Shown here piece by piece: positions 4,397-18,089 of a DNA stretch of 28,059 nucleotides. Origin of the DNA: Gaiellaceae bacterium. GTDB taxonomy: Bacteria; Actinomycetota; Thermoleophilia; Gaiellales; Gaiellaceae. The translations under genes were made by a program, and so were the position numbers. Numbering within the stretch: position 1 is the stretch's first letter; the number at the start of each line of letters is the position of its first letter. The notes under the pieces were generated by a model. That model was not told the DNA's origin, searched no databases, and saw only the letters and a list, made by a program, of their open reading frames with translations. The stretch lies in the NCBI GenBank assembly GCA_035257065.1, contig DATEXK010000205.1:1-28059 (forward strand). The letters are read 5' to 3'.

Positions 4397-5584
<1,188 letters not shown>

Positions 5585-5614
5585 TGGTGGCTCCTGATCT
5601 CCTTCGTTACCGAG

Positions 5615-7708
5615 TTAGGACCGAGCGTCGATGATGTCGCTCGCGATCGACTGAGGTACTTCCTCGTAGCGATCGAACTGCATGGTGAAATTGGCGCGCC
5701 CCTGCGTCATCGAACGCAGGTCGGTGGCGTACCCGAACATCTCCGACAACGGCACGCTGGCTTTGATGATCTGTGCGTTCCCCAGCGGGTTCATGGACTC
5801 GATGCTGCCGCGGCGGCTGTTGAGGTTACCCATCACGTCCCCGAGGTAGTCCTCGGGCGTCGTCACCTCGACGGCCATCACGGGCTCGAGCAACTTCGGC
5901 TTGGAGCGCTTCATGGCCTCCTTGAACGCCATCGACCCGGCGATCTTGAACGCACGCTCGCTCGAGTCGACCTCGTGGTACGACCCGTCCGTCAGCTCGA
6001 TCTTCACGTCGACGATGGGATACCCGGCGAGCACGCCCGAGTTCATCGCTTCCTTGATGCCTGCGTCGACGGCCGGGATGTACTCCTTGGGAATCTTGCC
6101 GCCGGTGATGCGATCGGAGAACTCGTATCCGTCGCCCGGCTGCTGCGGCGAGAGGTTGATGACGACGTCGGCGAACTGGCCCGAGCCGCCGGTCTGGCGC
6201 ACGAACTTCTCGCGGATGTTCTCCACCGGCTTGCCGGCGGTCTCGCGGTACGCGACCTGCGGGCGGCCCACGTTCGCGTCGACGTTGAACTCGCGCTTGA
6301 GGCGGTCGACGATGATCTCGAGGTGCAGCTCGCCCATGCCCTCGATGATCGTCTGGCCCGTCTCCTCGTCGGTCGAGACACGGAAGGTCGGATCCTCCTC
6401 TGAGAGCCGCGCGAGACCGGAGCCGAGCTTGTCCTGGTCGGCCTTCGACTTCGGCTCGACGGCGACGGCGATCACCGGCTCCGGGAACGTCATCGACTCG
6501 AGCACGATCGGCGCATTCTCCGCGGCGAGCGTGTCGCCCGTCGTCGTCGCCTTGAGACCGACGCCGGCGGCGATCTCGCCGGCCATGATCTCGTCGCGCT
6601 CCTCGCGATGGTTCGCGTGCATCTGGAGGATGCGGCTGACGCGCTCGGTCTTGCCGGTCGTCGTGTTCAGGACGCGGTCGCCGGACTTGATCCTGCCGGA
6701 GTAGACGCGGAAGTACGTGAGCTTGCCGACGTAGGGGTCGGACATGACCTTGAAGGCAAGCGCCGAGAAGGGCTCGTCCGGCGACGCGCCGCGAAGGACT
6801 TCCTCGCCCGACTTCGGGTCGAGGCCGATCATCGGCGGGACGTCGAGCGGACTCGGCAGGTAGTCGATGACCGCGTCGAGCAGCGGCTGCACGCCCTTGT
6901 TCTTGAAGGCGGAGCCGAGCAGGACGGGTGTGATCTCGTCGGCGATCGTCGCGGCGCGCACGGCGCGGCGGATCATGTCCGCGGTCACGCTGTTCTCGTC
7001 CTCCAGATACGCGCCGAGCACCTCGTCGTCGAAGCTCGAGATCGAGTCGACGAGCTGATGGCGGTACTCCTTGGCCTGCTCCACGAGCTCCGCGGGAATG
7101 TCGGTCGTCTCGAACTCCTGGCCGAGATCGTCCTTGTAGACGATTGCCTGCATGTCGAGCAGATCGATCACGCCGACGAAGTGCTCTTCCTGGCCGATCG
7201 GGATCTGCACCGGCACTGGGTTGGCGCCGAGCCGCTCGCGCATCGACTCGACGGCTGCGAAGAAGTTCGCGCCGGTGCGGTCCATCTTGTTGATGAACGC
7301 GATCCGCGGCACCTTGTACTTGTCGGCCTGGCGCCAGACCGTCTCGGACTGGGGCTGGACGCCGGCGACGGAGTCGAAGACGGCGACCGCGCCGTCGAGG
7401 ACACGCAGGCTGCGCTCGACCTCGACCGTGAAGTCCACGTGCCCGGGCGTATCGATGATGTTGATTCGATGGTCACGCCAGAACGCCGTCGTCGCAGCCG
7501 ACGTGATCGTGATGCCGCGCTCCTGTTCCTGCGCCATCCAGTCCATCGTCGCGGCGCCCTCGTGGACCTCGCCCATCTTGTGGGTGCGGCCCGTGTAGTA
7601 GAGGATCCGCTCGGTCGTCGTGGTCTTGCCCGCATCGATGTGGGCCATGATCCCGATGTTCCGGACGCGGTCGAGCGCGATCGAAGCTTCTTTTTCCTTG
7701 GTGCTCAA
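5615..7708 (-). CDS. fusA: Elongation factor G
   Basis: [46 protein letters not shown]; TTG start at 7708 (exact start uncertain). Confidence 0.98.
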
Positions 7709-7732
7709 AATGGGTCCTGTCTCTTTCTCGCG

Positions 7733-8203
7733 CTACCAGCGGTAGTGCGCAAAGGCCTTGTTGGCCTGCGCCATCCGGTAGACGTCGTCCTTGCGCTTGA
7801 ACGCTCCGCCCTGCTGGTTCATCGCGTCCATGATCTCGTTGGCGAGCTTGTTGCCCATGCCCTTCTCACGCCGCTCGCGCGCATACGTCACGAGCCAGCG
7901 CACGGCGAGCGTGCGGGCGCGACGCTGCGGCACCTCGACGGGCACCTGGTAGTTCGCACCGCCGACGCGGCGGCCCTTGACCTCGAGCACCGGCGTGACC
8001 GTCTTGACAGCGCTCTCCAGCACCTCGAGCGCCGGCTTGCCGGTCTTGGCCTCGACCGTCTTGAGCGCCTCGTAGACGATCAGCTCGGCGACCGACTTCT
8101 TGCCGTCGAGCATCACCTTGTTGATCACCTGCGTGACGAGCTGCGAGTTGTAGACCGAGTCGCCGAGGGCCACGCGGGCTTGAACGTCTGCACGACGAGG
8201 CAT
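7733..8203 (-). CDS. rpsG: 30S ribosomal protein uS7
   Basis: MPRR...DSVYNSQLV...RRVGGANYQVPVEV...MAQANKAFAHYRW. Confidence 0.98.
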   Translation of the reverse strand: MPRRADVQARVALGDSVYNSQLVTQVINKVMLDGKKSVAELIVYEALKTVEAKTGKPALEVLESAVKTVTPVLEVKGRRVGGANYQVPVEVPQRRARTLAVRWLVTYARERREKGMGNKLANEIMDAMNQQGGAFKRKDDVYRMAQANKAFAHYRW

Positions 8204-8574
8204 TACGAGCCCTTCTTGGCGCCGTACTTCGAGCGGGCCTGCTTGCGATCCGCGACGCCGCCCGTGTCGAGCGCGGCGCGGATGATCTTGTAGCGGAAGC
8301 CCGGGAGGTCCTTGACGCGGCCGCCGCGGACGAGCACGACCGAGTGCTCCTGCAGGTTGTGGCCCTCGCCGGGGATATAGGCCCCGATCTCCATGCCGTT
8401 CGTGAGCCGGACGCGGGCGACCTTCCGCAGAGCCGAGTTCGGCTTCTTCGGGGTGGTCGTGTACACGCGCGTGCAGACGCCACGCTTCTGCGGCGAGCCG
8501 GCGAGCGCGGGCGTCTTGGTCTTCGCCTGAGGAGCCTTGCGGCCCTTCCGGACGAGCTGATTCACGGTCGGCAT
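8203..8574 (-). CDS. rpsL: 30S ribosomal protein uS12
   Basis: True start ATG at 8574 ([12 protein letters not shown]) inside track ORF 8203..8766; [34 protein letters not shown]. Confidence 0.98.
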
Positions 8575-8679
8575 TGTTTTCGGTCTTCTCTCTTTCGCAA
8601 CAAAGCTAGTGCAACAACACGGGGGCAGTCGCAACAAAACGGTCGGCGGGGCAGCAGCCCCTGCCAACCGGCCCGCGGC

Positions 8680-8709
8680 ATGGTAGCGGAAGCGCCTCGC
8701 GAGCGTCAA
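8680..8709 (-). promoter_or_regulatory. Probable housekeeping-sigma promoter of the rpsL (str/S10) operon
   Basis: Minus strand TTGACG (8709-8704), 18-nt spacer, TACCAT (8685-8680), about 105 nt upstream of the rpsL ATG. Confidence 0.7.
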
Positions 8710-8789
8710 ACCGGCAAACCCTGTTGCTGAGCGGGAAACCGACCCGAAATACGACTTACAGAGCATAGCTTCGGAGGCAGCGGCGATCT

Positions 8790-9986
8790 ATGGTGCGACA
8801 CAACGAGCTACCGAGCTCGACGTCTCGCTCTCTGCGGTCGATGAATCACCTGCTCATAGGCATATCTGTGGGGCTCGGCGCGTGCGTCGTGCTCCTGCTC
8901 GTTCTGCTGGCGACGCTCGTGCGGCGGTCGACGAGGCGTGCCGACGAGCGGGTCACGGACGTCGTTCGCATCCTCGAGACGCGGATGGACGAGCTCGGAC
9001 AGGAGCTTGCAGGCGCGGTCGAGCGCGCCGAGGAGGAGGGCCGGCGCAGCCGGTTCCTCGGCGAGATCGCGGGCACGATCGAGCTCGACGAGGTGCTCGC
9101 GCGAACGCTCGAGGCGGCAACCGGCGCCGTGCCGGAGATCGACGCCTCGGTCGTGCGCCTCGAGAACCCGGACGGCGAGCCCACGGTGGCGGCCCACGGC
9201 CTGTCGGCCGACGGCGCCGAGGCGATCACGGGCCCTCCGGACGGCAGCCGCGCCCGGGCGATCGAGGTCTCGTACCGCTACGCCGACGACGCCGAGGACC
9301 CCGCCCGCCAGATCCACGGCGGGCTCGCGGTGCCGCTCGAGGAGCGCGGCGGCCGGATCGGGTATCTGAGCGTCTTCACGCGCGCCCCCGGTCGGCGCTT
9401 CGACGACGACGACGTGCGGCGGCTCGAGGAGCTCTCGCTCCGCGCGGGCCCGGCGATCGAGAACGCGCGCCGGTTCCGTGAGGCGCGGCAGCTGGCCGAC
9501 CTCGACGGGCTGACCGGCCTCCACAACCGGCGCTACTTCCACGAGACGCTCGCGCGCGAGTGCGGCCGCGCCCACCGCTACTCACGCCGCCTGTCGCTGA
9601 TGGTGTTCGACATCGACGACTTCAAGAACGTGAACGACCGGATCGGCCACCTCGCCGGCGACGCAGTCCTCGCCGAAGCGGCAGGTCGCGCGCGGGAGGT
9701 CGTCCGGAGCGCCGACATCCCATGCCGGGTGGGTGGAGACGAGTTCGCCGTCGTCCTGCCCGAGTCGAGCCTCGAGCAGGCCGACCAGCTGTTCGGCCGG
9801 ATCCAGACCGCGATCTCCGGCCGGCCGATCGGCCAGGCAGGGCGGCTGAAGATCTCCGCCGGCGTCGCCGAGCTCCAGGCCGAGGACGACTCGATCTCCT
9901 TCTTCGAGCGCGCCGACGAGGCGCTCTACCGTGCGAAAGAAGCCGGCAAGGGCCGCTCGATGGCAGCACAGAACCGCTCCGCATAG
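8790..9986 (+). CDS. Membrane-anchored GAF-GGDEF diguanylate cyclase
   Basis: N-terminal hydrophobic helix (LLIGISVGLGACVVLLLVLLATLV), helical linker, GAF-like segment, DGLTGLHNRRYF, DIDDFKNVND, RxxD I-site (RSAD) five residues before GGDEF, ADEALYRAK. Start is 8790 (GGAGG 12 nt upstream) or 8841. Confidence 0.92.
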   Translation: MVRHNELPSSTSRSLRSMNHLLIGISVGLGACVVLLLVLLATLVRRSTRRADERVTDVVRILETRMDELGQELAGAVERAEEEGRRSRFLGEIAGTIELDEVLARTLEAATGAVPEIDASVVRLENPDGEPTVAAHGLSADGAEAITGPPDGSRARAIEVSYRYADDAEDPARQIHGGLAVPLEERGGRIGYLSVFTRAPGRRFDDDDVRRLEELSLRAGPAIENARRFREARQLADLDGLTGLHNRRYFHETLARECGRAHRYSRRLSLMVFDIDDFKNVNDRIGHLAGDAVLAEAAGRAREVVRSADIPCRVGGDEFAVVLPESSLEQADQLFGRIQTAISGRPIGQAGRLKISAGVAELQAEDDSISFFERADEALYRAKEAGKGRSMAAQNRSA

Positions 9987-10103
9987 CATCGCTTCGCTCG
10001 CTTCACGGGGGAAACCATGTTTCCCCCGTGGGGCCCCTTCTTCGCTGCTGTCGGCGAGGCCGCTCACTGCTGCGCGGAACAAGTTCCGCTCCGCGACGAA
10101 AGG
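9986..10103 (+). repeat. REP/MITE-like double-hairpin repeat, copy A
   Basis: Begins at the GGDEF TAG. Hairpin 1 cacgggggaaac-cat-gtttcccccgtg (10004-10030), hairpin 2 gcggaac-aa-gttccgc (10074-10089), ends ccgcgacgaaag. Aligns by eye with copies B and C. Confidence 0.9.
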
Positions 10104-10111
10104 CGGGCGGC

Positions 10112-10144
10112 TCAGCCAAGCCCGAGGAAGCGTAGGTACGACGA
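10112..10144 (-). pseudogene. Orphan relic of the last 10 codons plus TGA of a homolog of the 588-aa gene (SSYLRFLGLG*)
   Basis: Codon-for-codon match to 11518-11550 (TSYLPFLRLG*): 24/33 nt identical, and 4 of the 7 differing codons are synonymous. Same 9-nt spacing to the adjacent repeat. Confidence 0.75.
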
Positions 10145-10166
10145 GAAGAAGCTCCGTGTCGGAGCT
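10141..10166 (-). terminator. Possible intrinsic terminator of the phosphoesterase gene
   Basis: Minus strand AGCTCCG-ACA-CGGAGCT followed by TCTTCTC, about 30 nt after the TAG at 10195. Confidence 0.45.
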
Positions 10167-10194
10167 CCTCCTCGCACGCGCTGTTCGCCGTTCC

Positions 10195-11280
10195 CTATGG
10201 CGCAGGGACGGCGGTGCGGTTGGCCGGGACGATCTGCTGCTGGTACGAGAACACCTCGCGGCTGCCGGGATCGACGAGGACCTTGAGCCAGTTGACGTCG
10301 TTGTCGCCGTTCGCCTGGTTGTCACCGAAGGTCTCGACGCGGGTGAAGTTCTCGAGCCTGCGTCCCTGTGTGTCCAGCAGCGGCTTGTCGATCCGGAAGT
10401 AGTGCGAGTCGCCGTTGACGTAGGCGACCGGCTTCCTGAAAGCGACAGTGTCGTCGCGGAGCGCGCTCAGGAACTGCTGGAACCCGTCGGGCTGCCCGTC
10501 CGTCTCGGCGAGGGTCTTCGCGTCACGGAGCGGCGCGCGGGTGCCGTCGGACCCATCCCACCCCGGATCGGCCTGGCTGATGATCATCACGGCCGCCGAA
10601 TGCCGCGCGGTGGCGATGCTGAACGTCTCGTTGAGCCACGCGATGTCGGCGGCGTTTCGCGCCGCGTATTCCGCCGGATCGGGGGCGGTGTCGCAGAGGT
10701 TGTTGCAGGATCCCTGCACGTTGAGGGTGACGTAGGTGACGCCCTCGACGGTCCAGCGCCTGTTCTCGATGCACGCCGCCGGGCCGCTGACTCCGAGGCA
10801 CGTCGGGGCCGTCTGGACCTCCTGCCGCATTCGATGCTGCCCGAGCGAGAAGGGCGTGCTGAAGAACAGGTGCCGCTCCTTGTCGAGCTGCGCCAGCGAG
10901 TTGTAGCCCGCGGTCCGGTCGCAATCGACCCAGTCGTTGTCGCCGGGCGTGAACATCGCGGGTGCGCGAAGCGAGTTGAAGTAGGACAGCGCCTGCGTGT
11001 ACACGCTGTCGGTGCACTCGCTCGAGCCGCTCTTCAGGTCGCCGTCGTGCGCGGTGAACACGAGGTCCTGCTGGTTCATGTCGGCGATCAGATTCGGCAC
11101 ACCCGTTGTCGCCTGGAGTGTCGAGTACGGCAGGTCTCCCCAGAGCCCGATCGCATAGGTGCTGTTGCCGTGGTCGCCTTCGTCTCCGCCTCTGCCGTTG
11201 AGGCTTGTGCCGGTTGCGATCCCGGCTGTGATCACCGCAGCGAGCAGTGCCCCGATGATGGGCATGACGAGCTTGCGCAT
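10195..11280 (-). CDS. Secreted calcineurin-like metallophosphoesterase family protein
   Basis: Sec-type signal (MRKLVMPIIGALLAAVITAGIATG). Ordered motifs WGDLPY, HDGD, PGDNDW and NGDSH match the D / GDxxD / GNHD / GHxH pattern in variant form. SD GGAGAGGGG. Confidence 0.75.
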   Translation of the reverse strand: MRKLVMPIIGALLAAVITAGIATGTSLNGRGGDEGDHGNSTYAIGLWGDLPYSTLQATTGVPNLIADMNQQDLVFTAHDGDLKSGSSECTDSVYTQALSYFNSLRAPAMFTPGDNDWVDCDRTAGYNSLAQLDKERHLFFSTPFSLGQHRMRQEVQTAPTCLGVSGPAACIENRRWTVEGVTYVTLNVQGSCNNLCDTAPDPAEYAARNAADIAWLNETFSIATARHSAAVMIISQADPGWDGSDGTRAPLRDAKTLAETDGQPDGFQQFLSALRDDTVAFRKPVAYVNGDSHYFRIDKPLLDTQGRRLENFTRVETFGDNQANGDNDVNWLKVLVDPGSREVFSYQQQIVPANRTAVPAP

Positions 11281-11388
11281 TGCTGTCCCCTCTCCGTGAT
11301 TTCCGTGGTCGGTCGGATTCGAGTGCGACGCTAACAGCGCGAAATCGGGGCTTCTACGCGCGTCACCACACCTTCACCGCACCGATTC

Positions 11389-11512
11389 CGCTTCGCTACG
11401 CTCGCTTCACGGGGGAAACCATGTTTCCCCCGTGGGCCCCCTTCTTCCTGCTGCTCACGGCGAGACGTCTCACTGCTGCGCCGAACAAGTTCGGCTCCGC
11501 GACGAAAGAGCC
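11389..11512 (+). repeat. REP/MITE-like double-hairpin repeat, copy B
   Basis: Hairpin 1 (11408-11434) is identical to that of copy A. Hairpin 2 gccgaac-aa-gttcggc. Ends ccgcgacgaaagagc, just past the stop of the 588-aa gene. Confidence 0.9.
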
Positions 11513-11517
11513 GCGAG

Positions 11518-13284
11518 TCAGCCGAGGCGCAGGAACGGGAGATACGACGTGAGGTCGACCGCTGCCGGTTGCGGCAGGTCGTCGCGCGCGCAGATTGCGT
11601 CGTTCAGGGCGGCGCGCTGTTGCGCGACGCTCCACTTCTCGAACGCGGCGCCGCGGGCGAACGAGCGGAGCGCGGCGGCGATTGTCGGCTTTGCCTGGCC
11701 GAGCGGCACCGCGCCGAGCGGAAGTGCATCCGCGAGCGCCTTCACCGTGAACGACCCGTCGCTCGTGCGCACGACAACCGAGCGCCCGGTGGCGACGTCG
11801 AAGAGCGGGCCCGGTGCGACCTCGTCGAGTGCGAGGCCCTTCGGCTTGCCACCGAGCCAGCCAGGCGCCGGCTTCGCCTGCACGAGCCGCACGAGCAGGT
11901 CCGGGTACGAGTCGTAGAAGGTCTTCACCTCGGACGCCGACGGGTTGCCCGCCGCGAGCGTCGCCTCGAGCTTCGCGCGCCGCAACTGGTCGCCGAGGAC
12001 GCCGCGCGCGATGTCGACGCTCGCGTGCGCCTGCTTCAACGCCGTGAGGTACGCGCTACTGCTTCCGTTGAACTCCTGGGCGATGACCGCGCGCTCGGCG
12101 GCGAGCACCGCCTGGCCCGGGACCGGAACCCTCCCGCTCTCGACGAGCCGCTCGTAGAGCGCGCTGTATGCGGTGTCGCGCTCGCCGGTGACGAGCTGGA
12201 GTCGCTGGATGGCGTCGTTCGACAAGAACTTGTCGCCCATGACGCACTGCTCGCCGGACACGAGCGTCGTCAGCTGTCCCGTCGTGCGCGACGGGTCGAA
12301 GTCGGTGCCGATCGCCTTTGGCGCGTTGCACAGCGCCGGCGAGCGAGTCCAGAGCCACGCACACAGCGCGTATGCCTTCGCGGGATCCTGCTCGGCGACG
12401 GTCCACTGCCCCCACCCCCACGACCAGACGGATGCGATGCCCGTCTCCGCCGCGACCTGTTGCGCGGCGAGCGACTGCCACTTCGCGACTTGATACCAGG
12501 CTGAGTCGGGTTGGAGGCCGCTCCTTCCGCCGAAGCCCTTCGTCGAGGCGAAGCTGATCATCAGACCGACGCGGCTGGGCGCGATGCCAATCGAGGTGAA
12601 GTCCTCGACGGCCTGCCGGTACGAGTCGCGCAGGTTGCGATTGCCGAGCACCGGCCCGCTCTTCCAGGTTGCGGTCGCCGGGATGTAGTCCTCCCGGACG
12701 ATCTCCGCAGCCGCGGCCAGCTGCTGCCACCACACGAGCGCGTCGCCGCCCGTGTACGGCCGCGCCGCGATCAGCATCACCGGGTGCGCACCGAGGGCGG
12801 CCAGCTGCTGCACGAACGTGAGCGCGTTCTGGCGGTACTGCGCGTTGTTGTCCGACCACGGAGTGACGAGCCCCGCGCCGGCGAGCTCGTTGAGCACGAT
12901 CACCGGAGTCGCGCAGCCGGTCTGCGCGACCGCGTAGTCGAAGAACGTCTTCGCGCGGGCGGCGAGGAGCGATGGGTCGGCCGGCTTCGTCGTCGTGCCG
13001 ATGCGGTTCGGCAGATTGAGGTCGAAGTAGACGGTCGCGGCACCCGCGGCGCGCATCTGCGCCGGCCATCCGCCGCTCGACGCGCCGACGACGATTCCCG
13101 GCTTGCCGAAAATCGCCTCGTACGCCGGGGTCGGCCAGCCGAACTCGGCATACAGCGGTTGCGTGTCCGGCAGGCCGCACTGGCCTGCGTACGGCGGAAG
13201 CGGTACCGAAGCGCCCCGCGCACCCGAGCCGATCGAGAGCACGGCCCCGCAGAGGACGACGAGTATTGCGAGCTGCTTCTTCAC
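11518..13284 (-). CDS. Secreted 588-aa hypothetical protein; putative GH-like TIM barrel plus PrsA/SurA-like C-terminal region
   Basis: GTG start, signal peptide MKKQLAILVVLCGAVLSIGSGARGA, codon usage typical of the window. Domain calls are motif-level inference only. Confidence 0.8.
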   Translation of the reverse strand: MKKQLAILVVLCGAVLSIGSGARGASVPLPPYAGQCGLPDTQPLYAEFGWPTPAYEAIFGKPGIVVGASSGGWPAQMRAAGAATVYFDLNLPNRIGTTTKPADPSLLAARAKTFFDYAVAQTGCATPVIVLNELAGAGLVTPWSDNNAQYRQNALTFVQQLAALGAHPVMLIAARPYTGGDALVWWQQLAAAAEIVREDYIPATATWKSGPVLGNRNLRDSYRQAVEDFTSIGIAPSRVGLMISFASTKGFGGRSGLQPDSAWYQVAKWQSLAAQQVAAETGIASVWSWGWGQWTVAEQDPAKAYALCAWLWTRSPALCNAPKAIGTDFDPSRTTGQLTTLVSGEQCVMGDKFLSNDAIQRLQLVTGERDTAYSALYERLVESGRVPVPGQAVLAAERAVIAQEFNGSSSAYLTALKQAHASVDIARGVLGDQLRRAKLEATLAAGNPSASEVKTFYDSYPDLLVRLVQAKPAPGWLGGKPKGLALDEVAPGPLFDVATGRSVVVRTSDGSFTVKALADALPLGAVPLGQAKPTIAAALRSFARGAAFEKWSVAQQRAALNDAICARDDLPQPAAVDLTSYLPFLRLG

Positions 13285-13327: not shown

Positions 13328-13452
13328 CAGCTCTTCCCGTCGCGGAGCCGAACTTGTTCGGCGCAGCAGTGATTCCGCCTGCCGCGAGCACGAACCCAGA
13401 AGGGGGTTCACGGGGGAAACTGGTTTCCCCCGTGAAGCAAGCGAAGCGATGC
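13328..13452 (-). repeat. REP/MITE-like double-hairpin repeat, copy C (inverted relative to A and B)
   Basis: Reverse complement reads gcatcgcttcgcttgcttcacgggggaaaccagtttcccccgtgaa...cactgctgcgccgaacaagttcggctccgcgacgggaagagc. Confidence 0.9.
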
Positions 13453-13455
13453 GTC

Positions 13456-13508
13456 AGGCCCACGGGGGAAACATGGTTTCCCCCGTGAAGCCCGCGAAGC
13501 GAAGCGAG
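13456..13508 (-). repeat. Partial repeat, copy D (leader plus hairpin 1 only), tandem with C
   Basis: Starts directly after the rpoC TAG: ctcgcttcgcttcgcgggcttcacgggggaaaccatgtttcccccgtgggcc; hairpin at 13461-13487. Confidence 0.88.

Positions 13509-18089
<4,581 letters not shown>

Follow-up and report, generated by a model that had tools for sequence, protein, structure and literature searches.

A duplicated repeat and gene tail around an accessory gene near rpoC in an uncultured Actinomycetota: probable scar of an old homology-guided insertion

How does a single accessory gene come to lie between two direct copies of a repeat, each followed by the same gene tail, in one of the gaps beside the RNA polymerase operon? 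The question is raised by a 28,059-nt stretch of DNA from a Gaiellaceae bacterium (contig DATEXK010000205.1, assembly GCA_035257065.1), referred to here as the window. Two convergent, genus-conserved genes with a short gap between them separate rpsL from rpoC; the lineage probably belongs to the Solirubrobacterales. The left neighbour, conserved and syntenic in 13 genus loci, encodes a GAF-GGDEF diguanylate cyclase (8790..9986, plus strand; Pfam GGDEF, E 1e-41, and GAF_2). Facing it is P588 (11518..13284, minus strand), a 588-aa gene which is conserved in the genus but has no Pfam family. In the window, this gap holds a 361-aa gene, PE361. A sequence-only reading had taken the arrangement for the footprint of a Campbell-type integration of a small circle, and for a cassette system acting at the site.

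The duplicated unit

The repeat (R), a 9-nt spacer and the TGA-ended last codons of P588 occur in two copies, 1406 nt apart, flanking PE361. Repeat A (9986..10100, plus strand) is a copy of the ~118-nt double-hairpin R with the G-C variant of hairpin 2. Repeat B (11389..11506, plus strand) follows in direct orientation and carries the C-G variant. The motif gcgacgaaag is read directly on the sequence at 10093-10102 and 11499-11508; the nine nucleotides after it (10103-11 and 11509-17) lead in each case to TCA, the minus-strand TGA (10112-14 and 11518-20). On the minus strand the functional tail of P588 (11518-11550) reads TSYLPFLRLG*, and the relic (10112..10146), which is non-coding and decayed, reads SSYLRFLGLG*. 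By hand count, 24 of 33 nucleotides are identical and four of the seven differing codons are synonymous. The coordinates, spacing and counts given in the sequence-only reading are all confirmed.

The 50-nt flanks of A and B have 34 bases in common, against a mean of 13.8 (sd 3.4) for the 1378 pairs formed by 53 genomic R copies (z ~6). The runner-up pair reaches 26 of 50, and no R pair other than A and B has a shared flank. Searched in all six frames for SYLPFLRLG* with up to two substitutions, the full 3.23-Mb assembly yields only the real tail and the relic. The relic/tail sequence is absent from the R consensus, and the adjacency of relic and PE361 is repeated in two independent contigs, L098 and L100. 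It is true that 14 of the ~60 R loci lie at contig ends in this 569-contig MAG, and that high GC raises chance identity; set against the evidence of the flanks, peptide and contigs, however, a chance match, a match to the repeat consensus or a mis-assembly threaded through the repeats is hardly credible. P588 orthologues keep the ending DLTxYLPFLRLG*, and since the tail is kept in all of them, the relic is derived from P588.

Repeats A and B are 91% identical, no more than is ordinary for a family with a mean of 89%, so the R parts carry no signal of common origin. As wholes the two copies are now 83% alike, and their longest identical runs (36-37 nt) all fall in the R 5' hairpin module, which is kept across the whole family; no border-specific core was found between A and B. 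Their second hairpins differ by a compensatory pair, a difference already present in both this species and its sister species. The spacers differ at six of nine positions. That between repeat A and the relic stop (10101..10111) is of an 'alpha' type, minus strand GCCGCCCGC, as in L075 and on the relic side of L100; that between repeat B and the P588 stop (11507..11517) is of a 'beta' type, common to the repeat-free empty allele L046. The direct repeats bounding PE361 measure ~160 bp here; the L100 locus shows an original length of about 210 bp. Past 10146 towards the PE361 stop, homology between A and B is marginal (p = 0.03-0.06), and neither of the non-coding segments 10101-10200 and 11275-11392 matches anything else in the genome or in any of the loci except L100 and L101. 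The right-hand boundary of the duplication is exactly the R 5' terminus (11389), which random recombination does not predict and which hints at an R-linked process.

The synonymous differences had been thought to mark the relic as a once-functional homologue. Synonymous changes account for four of nine changed bases, however, and this bias lacks significance. The relic stands about equally far from each of the functional tails (19-26/33 identical), is not assignable to a donor lineage and bears rare AT-ending codons; its distance and codons thus argue for decay rather than a functional, diverged allele.

The inserted gene and the repeat family

PE361 (10195..11280, minus strand) is predicted to be a secreted protein of metallophosphoesterase fold. 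It has no Pfam match at E values up to 10 and no NCBIfam match. Its structural model (pLDDT 71) finds SMPDL3A, purple acid phosphatase and GpdQ as top Foldseek matches in the PDB (probability 1.0, E 7e-8 to 1e-6, TM about 0.5), and 44% of its Atlas feature neighbours are PF00149. A metallophosphoesterase (calcineurin-like) fold is clear from the model, and the earlier description of PE361 as a phosphoesterase holds at the level of predicted fold, if not of family. Exact-protein look-ups of PE361 and P588 returned no match.

The 108-nt region upstream of PE361 (11281..11388, minus strand) accompanies the gene in all alleles and is 87% identical to its counterpart in L100; it has a Shine-Dalgarno-like GGAGAGGGGA and no sigma-70 consensus. 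A stem-loop at the 3' end of the mRNA (10141..10175, minus strand) has a 16-bp stem including G-U pairs (z = -4.3), which is perfect in L098 and kept in L100. This hairpin had been described as terminator-like. The stem is real but lacks a U tract, and for that reason the terminator scan makes no call.

PE361 is an accessory, horizontally moving gene. It is present in 13 of 133 genus genomes, at other sites in those checked, and nucleotide homology to its orthologues is limited to the CDS. Homologues of at most 82% identity lie in unrelated contexts, and the family extends across phyla, with more than 4400 close homologues. To judge from sequence, PE361 is foreign to its insertion site. It is the sole ORF between repeats A and B, with no tyrosine or serine integrase in or beside the insert. 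As the sequence-only reading had it, the window ORFs scanned (the three neighbours and ten more) include no integrase; each is either ribosomal, part of the RNA polymerase operon, a housekeeping gene or without a Pfam match, and the assignment of rpoB, rpoC, fusA and tuf is by tblastn or position only. PE361 is likewise the sole inserted gene in L100, L083 and L101, again with no integrase.

R is non-coding and intergenic, with two unlike hairpins in fixed polarity, and is found singly, inverted and in partial tandem at its ~60 loci. The stem of hairpin 2 begins with G-C pairs and has a 4-nt loop; the 3' hairpin terminates in GACG, which reads CGTC on the opposite strand. Rfam holds no family for it. 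In 15 of 52 copies the R 5' end lies exactly against the stop of a long ORF on its own strand, and TGA also precedes R in tandem arrays. Repeat A abuts the TAG of the cyclase gene here, in L075 and in L100, and R has been independently re-inserted or flipped beside stop codons in allele V (at the PE361 stop) and in L101 (at the P588 stop). A third copy, repeat C (13338..13519, minus strand), is inverted, has an extra 5' hairpin module and lies between P588 and the rpoC stop. Neither R nor the relic should be annotated as a gene.

Alleles in related genomes

An empty allele made up of P588, one repeat and the cyclase gene had been predicted, and L075 is of this form, with the cyclase TAG, a single R, 13 nt and the TCA of P588. 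L046 and L074 are empty alleles with a 24-nt gap and no R, and most of 13 same-genus relatives have an empty allele without R. PE361 is absent from the junction in 13 of 13 genus loci, the R core is found there in 0 of 13, and their gaps contain no relic-like peptide. Other cargo had also been anticipated at the junction; distant congeners do have other genes in the gap, but without relics or R.

Filled alleles come from further sources as well. L098, a Logan contig from another peat run, links relic and PE361 and is 98.2% identical to the window over 10080-11418. L100, a 9-kb JGI contig from a sister species, establishes the same linkage independently of the MAG, with the same gene order and amino acid identities of 84% for PE361 and 86% for P588. 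The relic in L100 is at least 77 nt long, and that of the window is an internally deleted form of it. Local alignment of the L100 relic to the real tail scores 79 versus 21±2.8 for shuffles, and extends from 77 nt ahead of the stop to 9 nt beyond. Repeat B is represented in L100 by a ~35-nt degenerate remnant of the R 3' module, and the join between relic and cargo has no detectable homology. The L100 relic and its own tail retain an identical 24-nt stretch in otherwise saturated sequence; the window and L100 relics are identical at 20 of 33 positions, and neutral sites are near saturation between the species. Since PE361 occupies the same junction in this sister species, the event is old.

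Another filled allele, allele V (L083), is conspecific with the window and 98% identical to it on both sides. The structural difference is confined to 9963-10205, where the relic and the stem-loop are replaced by an inverted R abutting the PE361 stop; there are also four synonymous differences in the last four PE361 codons. On sequence grounds, recombination is active at the GGDEF-P588 locus. The relic side of the insert, with its G-C hairpin-2 variant and GCCGCC spacer, agrees with L075 and the L100 relic; the functional side, with the C-G variant and CNCGCGGCT spacer, agrees with L046 and L083. The two units thus resemble forms of a single locus from two different lineages, although with neutral sites so near saturation the argument hangs on ~10 informative positions. 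Filled and empty alleles form a well-supported clade (96/99) whose internal branching is not resolved, and hence a single gain with losses is not separable from repeated transfer.

Origin of the scar and its relation to known systems

PE361 was probably inserted long ago, by a homology-guided insertion that duplicated R, the spacer and the tail, the copies of which then eroded. The incoming DNA would have carried PE361 beside its own version of R, a 13-nt spacer and at least the last 77 nt of P588, probably derived from a related lineage. Homologous recombination of this unit with the resident one would have placed ~210 bp to either side of PE361 as direct repeats. Of the two copies, the one joined to the body of P588 would have stayed under selection, while the other, having lost its gene, would have decayed. 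Insertion preceded the split of the window species from its sister species, and erosion has since cut the relic to 35 nt here, reduced repeat B to its remnant in L100 and replaced the relic in allele V. The intermediate may have been a circle, entering by a single crossover (Campbell), or linear DNA, entering with one join homologous and the other illegitimate by homology-facilitated illegitimate recombination, an established mechanism that leaves displaced 3' pieces (PMC5361080 and references therein). Both fit; of the Campbell-type integration first proposed, homology-guided duplication of repeat, spacer and tail remains the best reading, whereas nothing shows a circle. A donor state, with PE361 beside an R-spacer-tail unit before the event, was not found, which leaves the first step unexplained under the circular and linear variants alike.

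The hint of an R-linked process at the boundary invites a different account, in which the copying of repeat B ran on into the spacer and P588 tail on its 3' side and the product landed at a target that R prefers, immediately after a stop codon, here that of the cyclase gene; PE361 would have arrived earlier without any duplication. The habit of R of abutting stop codons, its position behind the cyclase TAG in three alleles and its re-insertion or flipping in allele V and L101 would all suit such a process. A carried-over flank is seen in none of the other flank pairs, however, and the compensatory hairpin-2 difference, the divergent spacers and the lack of an R-linked transposase also count against it, making this origin of the relic unlikely. 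It is very unlikely that R is a mobile, non-autonomous double-hairpin element which targets sites behind stops, can carry adjacent host DNA and, paired with a second copy, brought PE361 from one related Solirubrobacterales lineage to another as one repeat-bounded unit; if true, this would be a repeat-driven route of single-gene exchange without a cassette-borne recombinase.

That the ~1.4-kb segment is still an active non-autonomous cassette, excising as a circle via its direct repeats and re-integrating at R-plus-tail sites of relatives, is quite unlikely. PE361 does lie between direct repeats, its presence is patchy in one clade, the L075 empty allele resembles a precise excision product, and relic and tail bear signs of having exchanged sequence by gene conversion. 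Yet no B-to-A junction occurs among the joints listed for Logan contigs from four runs, contigs being weak evidence of absence; those joints trace to allele V, to other R copies or to what is probably a relative's empty allele, and one of them, from 9962 to 11520, may be such an empty allele. L098, considered as a circle for its 1404 nt, about one repeat period, has ends which differ in sequence and stop inside the repeats. In contigs from the four runs the depth of PE361 ranges from about half that of its neighbours to the same value, per-contig depth being no measure of allele frequency. The 83% likeness of the copies with its short identical runs, the single instance in the genome, the missing recombinase and the failure of other alleles to maintain the structure (one repeat is nearly gone in L100 and one is inverted in allele V) speak against a working cassette. 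The proposed 'system' is thus not sustained, and an event that predates the species split and has eroded is not a system acting now.

The alleles of this one insertion site, from uncultured Actinomycetota of peat and soil, form a natural series of unusual completeness: it begins with empty sites, first lacking R and then bearing one copy, and passes on to filled sites whose relic is long, then short, and finally replaced. An accessory gene has entered beside the rpoBC and str operons, and been remodelled there, without dedicated mobile-element machinery, and such a spot continues to be reshaped by dispersed hairpin repeats and by recombination across lineages. The large unnamed family of PE361 merits a family definition.

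Prophages and islands integrate in the 3' ends of genes and bring a replacement 3' end with them, as do e14 and phage 21 in E. coli icd and the tRNA-targeting islands. There, as here, the target 3' end is directly duplicated on both sides, one copy being intact and the other a diverged leftover. In contrast, the four alleles seen contain no integrase, identifiable att core or other element genes, a single 1.1-kb gene makes up the cargo, and the duplicated unit includes a dispersed repeat. Integron gene cassettes also place a single promoter-poor gene between structured repeats, and like them this segment could in principle circularise; here, however, there is no intI, attI/attC architecture or array, and the repeats combine a family found across the genome with a piece of a host gene.

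R itself resembles REP, BIME and REPIN elements and CGTC-tagged repeats (PMC3733652, PMC3116915, PMC2817692) in being short, non-coding, intergenic and hairpin-forming, in its CGTC end and in flanking no dedicated transposase gene. The CGTC families have an unpaired terminal CGTC, an 8-9-bp stem starting with A-T, a 4-5-nt loop and a 3-nt tail (PMC3733652). R differs in its G-C stem start, its 118-nt unit of two unlike hairpins with fixed polarity and its 5' end directly behind stop codons, and its actinobacterial lineage is not in the list of PMC3733652. No RAYT flanked by R was found; the four PF01797 (Y1_Tnp) ORFs of this fragmented assembly lie on R-free contigs.

[quoted passage not shown] 2009). 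The present case differs in lacking a polymorphic tip, since the displaced and retained tails encode the same conserved peptide; in its cargo, which is a secreted enzyme of unrelated kind and not a toxin-immunity pair; and in its single displacement, which has given no array. The displaced fragment is present, but the other border coincides with an R terminus, and no donor was found. Common to both would be incoming DNA that uses homology with a conserved gene as its anchor, the insertion of new DNA, and a decaying orphan downstream that was once the gene's 3' piece. Recombination scars of this kind are known, and the present one is a well-preserved fossil rather than an active gene-cassette system.

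A foreign gene between rpsL and rpoC

The window is one entire contig (C205) of a metagenome-assembled genome (G000) of 3.23 Mb, 569 contigs and 68.8% GC. It contains the ribosomal-protein, str and rpoBC gene clusters; its DNA recurs in metagenomes from peat and soil, in at least 12 studies. Between rpsL and rpoC lies a GAF-GGDEF gene (8790-9986, plus strand), followed by repeat A (9986-10100), the 361-aa ORF PE361 (10195-11280, minus strand), repeat B (11389-11506), the 588-aa ORF P588 (11518-13284, minus strand) and repeat C (13338-13519), which is inverted, has an extra 5' module and terminates at the rpoC stop. A, B and C are copies of a dispersed repeat, R.

PE361 has no sequence match in Pfam, NCBIfam or PDB. 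An AlphaFold2 model made with 11 homologs as input (pLDDT 71, pTM 0.78) matches the metallophosphoesterases SMPDL3A, purple acid phosphatases, Lmo2642 and GpdQ (E 7e-8 to 1e-6), and the Atlas feature neighbours of the protein concur with this fold. Its hydrophobic N-terminus makes PE361 a putatively secreted protein; residues 1-38, the expected signal-peptide region, have low model confidence. The family comprises more than 4400 proteins (E ≤1e-50) without a Pfam model, spread across Actinomycetota and Acidobacteriota MAGs with members 70-80% identical; it is conserved, has probably spread horizontally, and is worth defining. Homologs of up to 82% identity sit in unrelated gene neighbourhoods, and at the nucleotide level resemblance to congeneric orthologs is limited to the coding sequence. 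The unrelated contexts, together with the wide and unnamed family, mark PE361 as foreign cargo. The ortholog in one congeneric genome (L043, G014:C1:1118894-1120011) occupies another locus and is a pseudogene, split by frameshifts into four pieces and interrupted by an in-frame TGA.

A duplicated gene end on both sides of PE361

The sequence-only reading had placed PE361 between two copies of a repeat joined to the P588 3' end, and the details it gave are all present. The motif gcgacgaaag, 9 nt and TCA occur at 10093-10114 and 11499-11520, and the minus strand reads SSYLRFLGLG* in the relic (10112-10146) and TSYLPFLRLG* at the functional end (11518-11550), with 24 of 33 nt identical and four of the seven differing codons synonymous. 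The synonymous bias, taken as the trace of a functional homolog, amounts to 4 of the 9 changed bases and is not significant. The relic is roughly equidistant from all functional P588 tails and contains rare CTA and CTT codons, a composition that indicates decay.

Because R is a dispersed family with about 60 loci, the tail might have been part of the repeat. This was ruled out, as the 3' flanks of 53 R copies are mutually unrelated except for those of A and B, which share 34 of 50 positions (otherwise mean 13.8/50, sd 3.4, maximum 26). A six-frame scan of the entire genome for SYLPFLRLG* with up to two substitutions returned the true P588 end and the relic only. P588 is present in 20 of the 24 same-genus genomes searched (24/41 overall), alignments to its orthologs reach the last residue, and the tail is indeed conserved, with 13 same-genus orthologs terminating in DLTxYLPFLR[LIM][GQ]* or close variants, which identifies the relic as a piece of a P588 3' end.

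Tracing PE361 homologs through a large protein collection and fetching their contigs led to another version of the same junction. L100, a 9-kb JGI contig (PE361 84% and P588 86% identical at the amino acid level to the window), has the order rpoC-P588-PE361-GGDEF-rpsL-rpsG-fusA. Downstream of its PE361 come a stem-loop as in the window (10141-10175), 43 nt, and then a much longer relic ending ...ARRNLPQPAAVDLVSYLPFSRVG*, whose TGA is separated by a spacer of 9 nt (GCCGCCGGG) from a rearranged R that abuts the GGDEF stop. This region aligns locally to the P588 3' end of L100 itself with a score of 79 (shuffles 21±2.8), starting 77 nt ahead of the stop and extending 9 nt past it. No full R lies between P588 and PE361 in L100; global alignment with the window places a degenerate remnant of the R 3' module, ~35 nt long, at the position of repeat B. 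From the long relic and this remnant it follows that in the common ancestor of both species PE361 was flanked on either side by R, the spacer and 77 nt or more of the tail. Judged from these alignments, the ancestral duplicated unit was ~210 bp in direct orientation, and the 35-nt relic of the window is an internally deleted descendant of a longer one.

Empty and remodelled alleles

The order rpsG-rpsL-GGDEF(+)-P588(-)-rpoC is maintained in 13 same-genus loci, none of which has PE361 or R at the GGDEF/P588 junction. The gap there varies in length between 4-5 nt and 6.4 kb. It is a general variable spot, and a divergent subclade has other genes in it: an ORF of 175 aa, pilin-like genes and a membrane protein of 332 aa. 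In that subclade a conserved 175-180-aa ORF adjoins P588 (L019/G018, L025/G023, L020/G002, L024/G007, L018/G012), with an additional 2-6 kb of prepilin-like genes in two genomes and the membrane protein in one. The gap in G016 (L026) is a 371-nt non-coding element with inverted ends of ~71 nt, one of which recurs in G024 (L014), and looks like a different miniature element at the same junction.

A metagenome scan with P588 yielded closer relatives, and among them the predicted empty allele: in L075 (P588 84% aa) the GGDEF TAG is followed directly by one R, 13 nt and the P588 stop. Two further relatives, L046 and L074 (P588 89% and 87% aa), have a 24-nt gap without R. L047 (P588 87% aa) has no GGDEF gene, and rpsL lies ~185 nt after P588. 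These four and the window form one clade (support 96/99), its interior unresolved.

Alleles carrying PE361 have been remodelled since. L083, a conspecific 28.9-kb contig, is 98.4% identical to the window over 5463-9962 and 97.7% over 10196-11783, the structural difference being confined to 9963-10205. Here L083 has a different GGDEF end and, 6 nt on, an R in inverted orientation to which part of a further 5' module is added. The 5' end of this R abuts the TAA stop of PE361; relic and stem-loop are both absent. The last four PE361 codons, counting the stop, differ between the two at all four third positions with VPAP* unchanged, and these silent differences mark a boundary of recombination between two PE361-bearing haplotypes. 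The L083 junction also occurs in Logan contigs of sequencing runs X1, X3 and X6 and in L099 (94.5% identical), and the window type in L098, from a different peat run (98.2% identical). The L098 relic has one further change and its stem-loop is perfect; the window stem-loop differs from it twice, both C-to-U on the mRNA strand with G-U pairs kept. In L101 an inverted R lies between P588 and PE361, abutting the P588 stop.

Between the window and L083, identity over 11496-11595 falls to 87% at the spacer and last 11 P588 codons (~98% elsewhere), all six differences being synonymous; this local drop points to a hot spot of recombination or conversion. L083 and L046 both encode the GGDEF C-terminus MSAESRSA*, using different codon families (Ser TCA/AGC, Arg AGA/CGC, Ser AGC/TCG), an odd amount of synonymous recoding across eight codons.

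The repeat and the route of insertion

R is ~118 nt long, occupies about 60 loci in the assembly and has two unlike hairpins. It is composite: the first ~60 nt (11389-11447 in B), with the hairpin CACGGGGGAAACC...GTTTCCCCCGTG, form a 5' module, and the remainder lies at 11448-11506. This module occurs alone in about half of the 60 congeneric species genomes searched. Full-length R was found only in G000 among them, and also on metagenome contigs of the closest relatives (L075, L076, L083). Genome-wide, in 34 full copies, pair 101-112 of hairpin 2 is C-G in 19 and G-C in 15, thus paired in 34/34, and a second pair is A-U in 28 and G-C in 5. Such compensatory variation, with almost all copies paired, implies selection on hairpin 2 as RNA or single-stranded DNA.

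In 15 of 52 copies the 5' end of R immediately follows the stop of a long ORF on the same strand, and in 32 of 52 such a stop is no more than 40 nt away; the window positions concerned are 9986, 13506-13519 and 13453. A TGA precedes R units even within tandem or partial arrays, and no target-site duplication was seen around R copies. This placement suggests that R inserts 3' of a stop-like trinucleotide, or that the element brings its own TGA/TAA. Rfam holds no matching family. Four Y1_Tnp (PF01797) ORFs of 190-219 aa, a typical size for REP-associated tyrosine transposases, are found in G000 (C533, C317, C95, C34); none has R nearby or on its contig. In ending with CGTC on the other strand and lacking a linked transposase, R resembles the CGTC-tagged REPs, which have no dedicated transposase (PMC3733652), but it does not follow the stem rules of the CGTC families. 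At many loci (for example on C257, C292, C381, C421, C479, C516 and C217), the region some tens of bases past the R 3' end contains a second, short palindrome, ...GGGGTCTGACCCC..., possibly another repeat family associating with R.

A foreign segment between copies of a ~210-bp duplicated target needs two junctions ~210 bp apart in that target. Most simply, either a circle carrying a homologous unit would have entered by a single crossover (Campbell), or a linear fragment would have recombined by homology at one end and been joined illegitimately at the other, the type of 3'-end displacement that has been put forward for Rhs, CDI and T6SS loci (PMC5361080). The duplicated units resemble the forms that a single locus takes in two lineages. 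On the relic side the G-C form of hairpin 2 (10064-10098 in A) goes with the spacer GCCGCC, matching L075 and the L100 relic; on the functional side the C-G form (11470-11504 in B) goes with the spacer CNCGCGGCT, matching L046 and L083. Both routes fit this appearance. In their R portions, A and B resemble each other no more than random family members do. Alternatively, R may have generated a copy of itself that ran on into the P588 tail, and this copy may have come to lie after the stop codon of GGDEF. Such an origin agrees with the habit of R of sitting behind stop codons and with a duplication boundary exactly at its 5' terminus, but no second example exists among 1378 flank pairs.

Homology-guided insertion, the duplicated repeat-plus-tail unit and the empty alleles of the sequence-only reading thus stand; nothing supports its circle or a working cassette system. 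No circle was seen among the joints listed for Logan contigs of four runs; a 1404-nt Logan contig, equal to one repeat period, was ruled out as a circle, being linear. The insertion is an ancient, single and eroded event, and the locus is a well-documented new case of an already known type of recombination scar.
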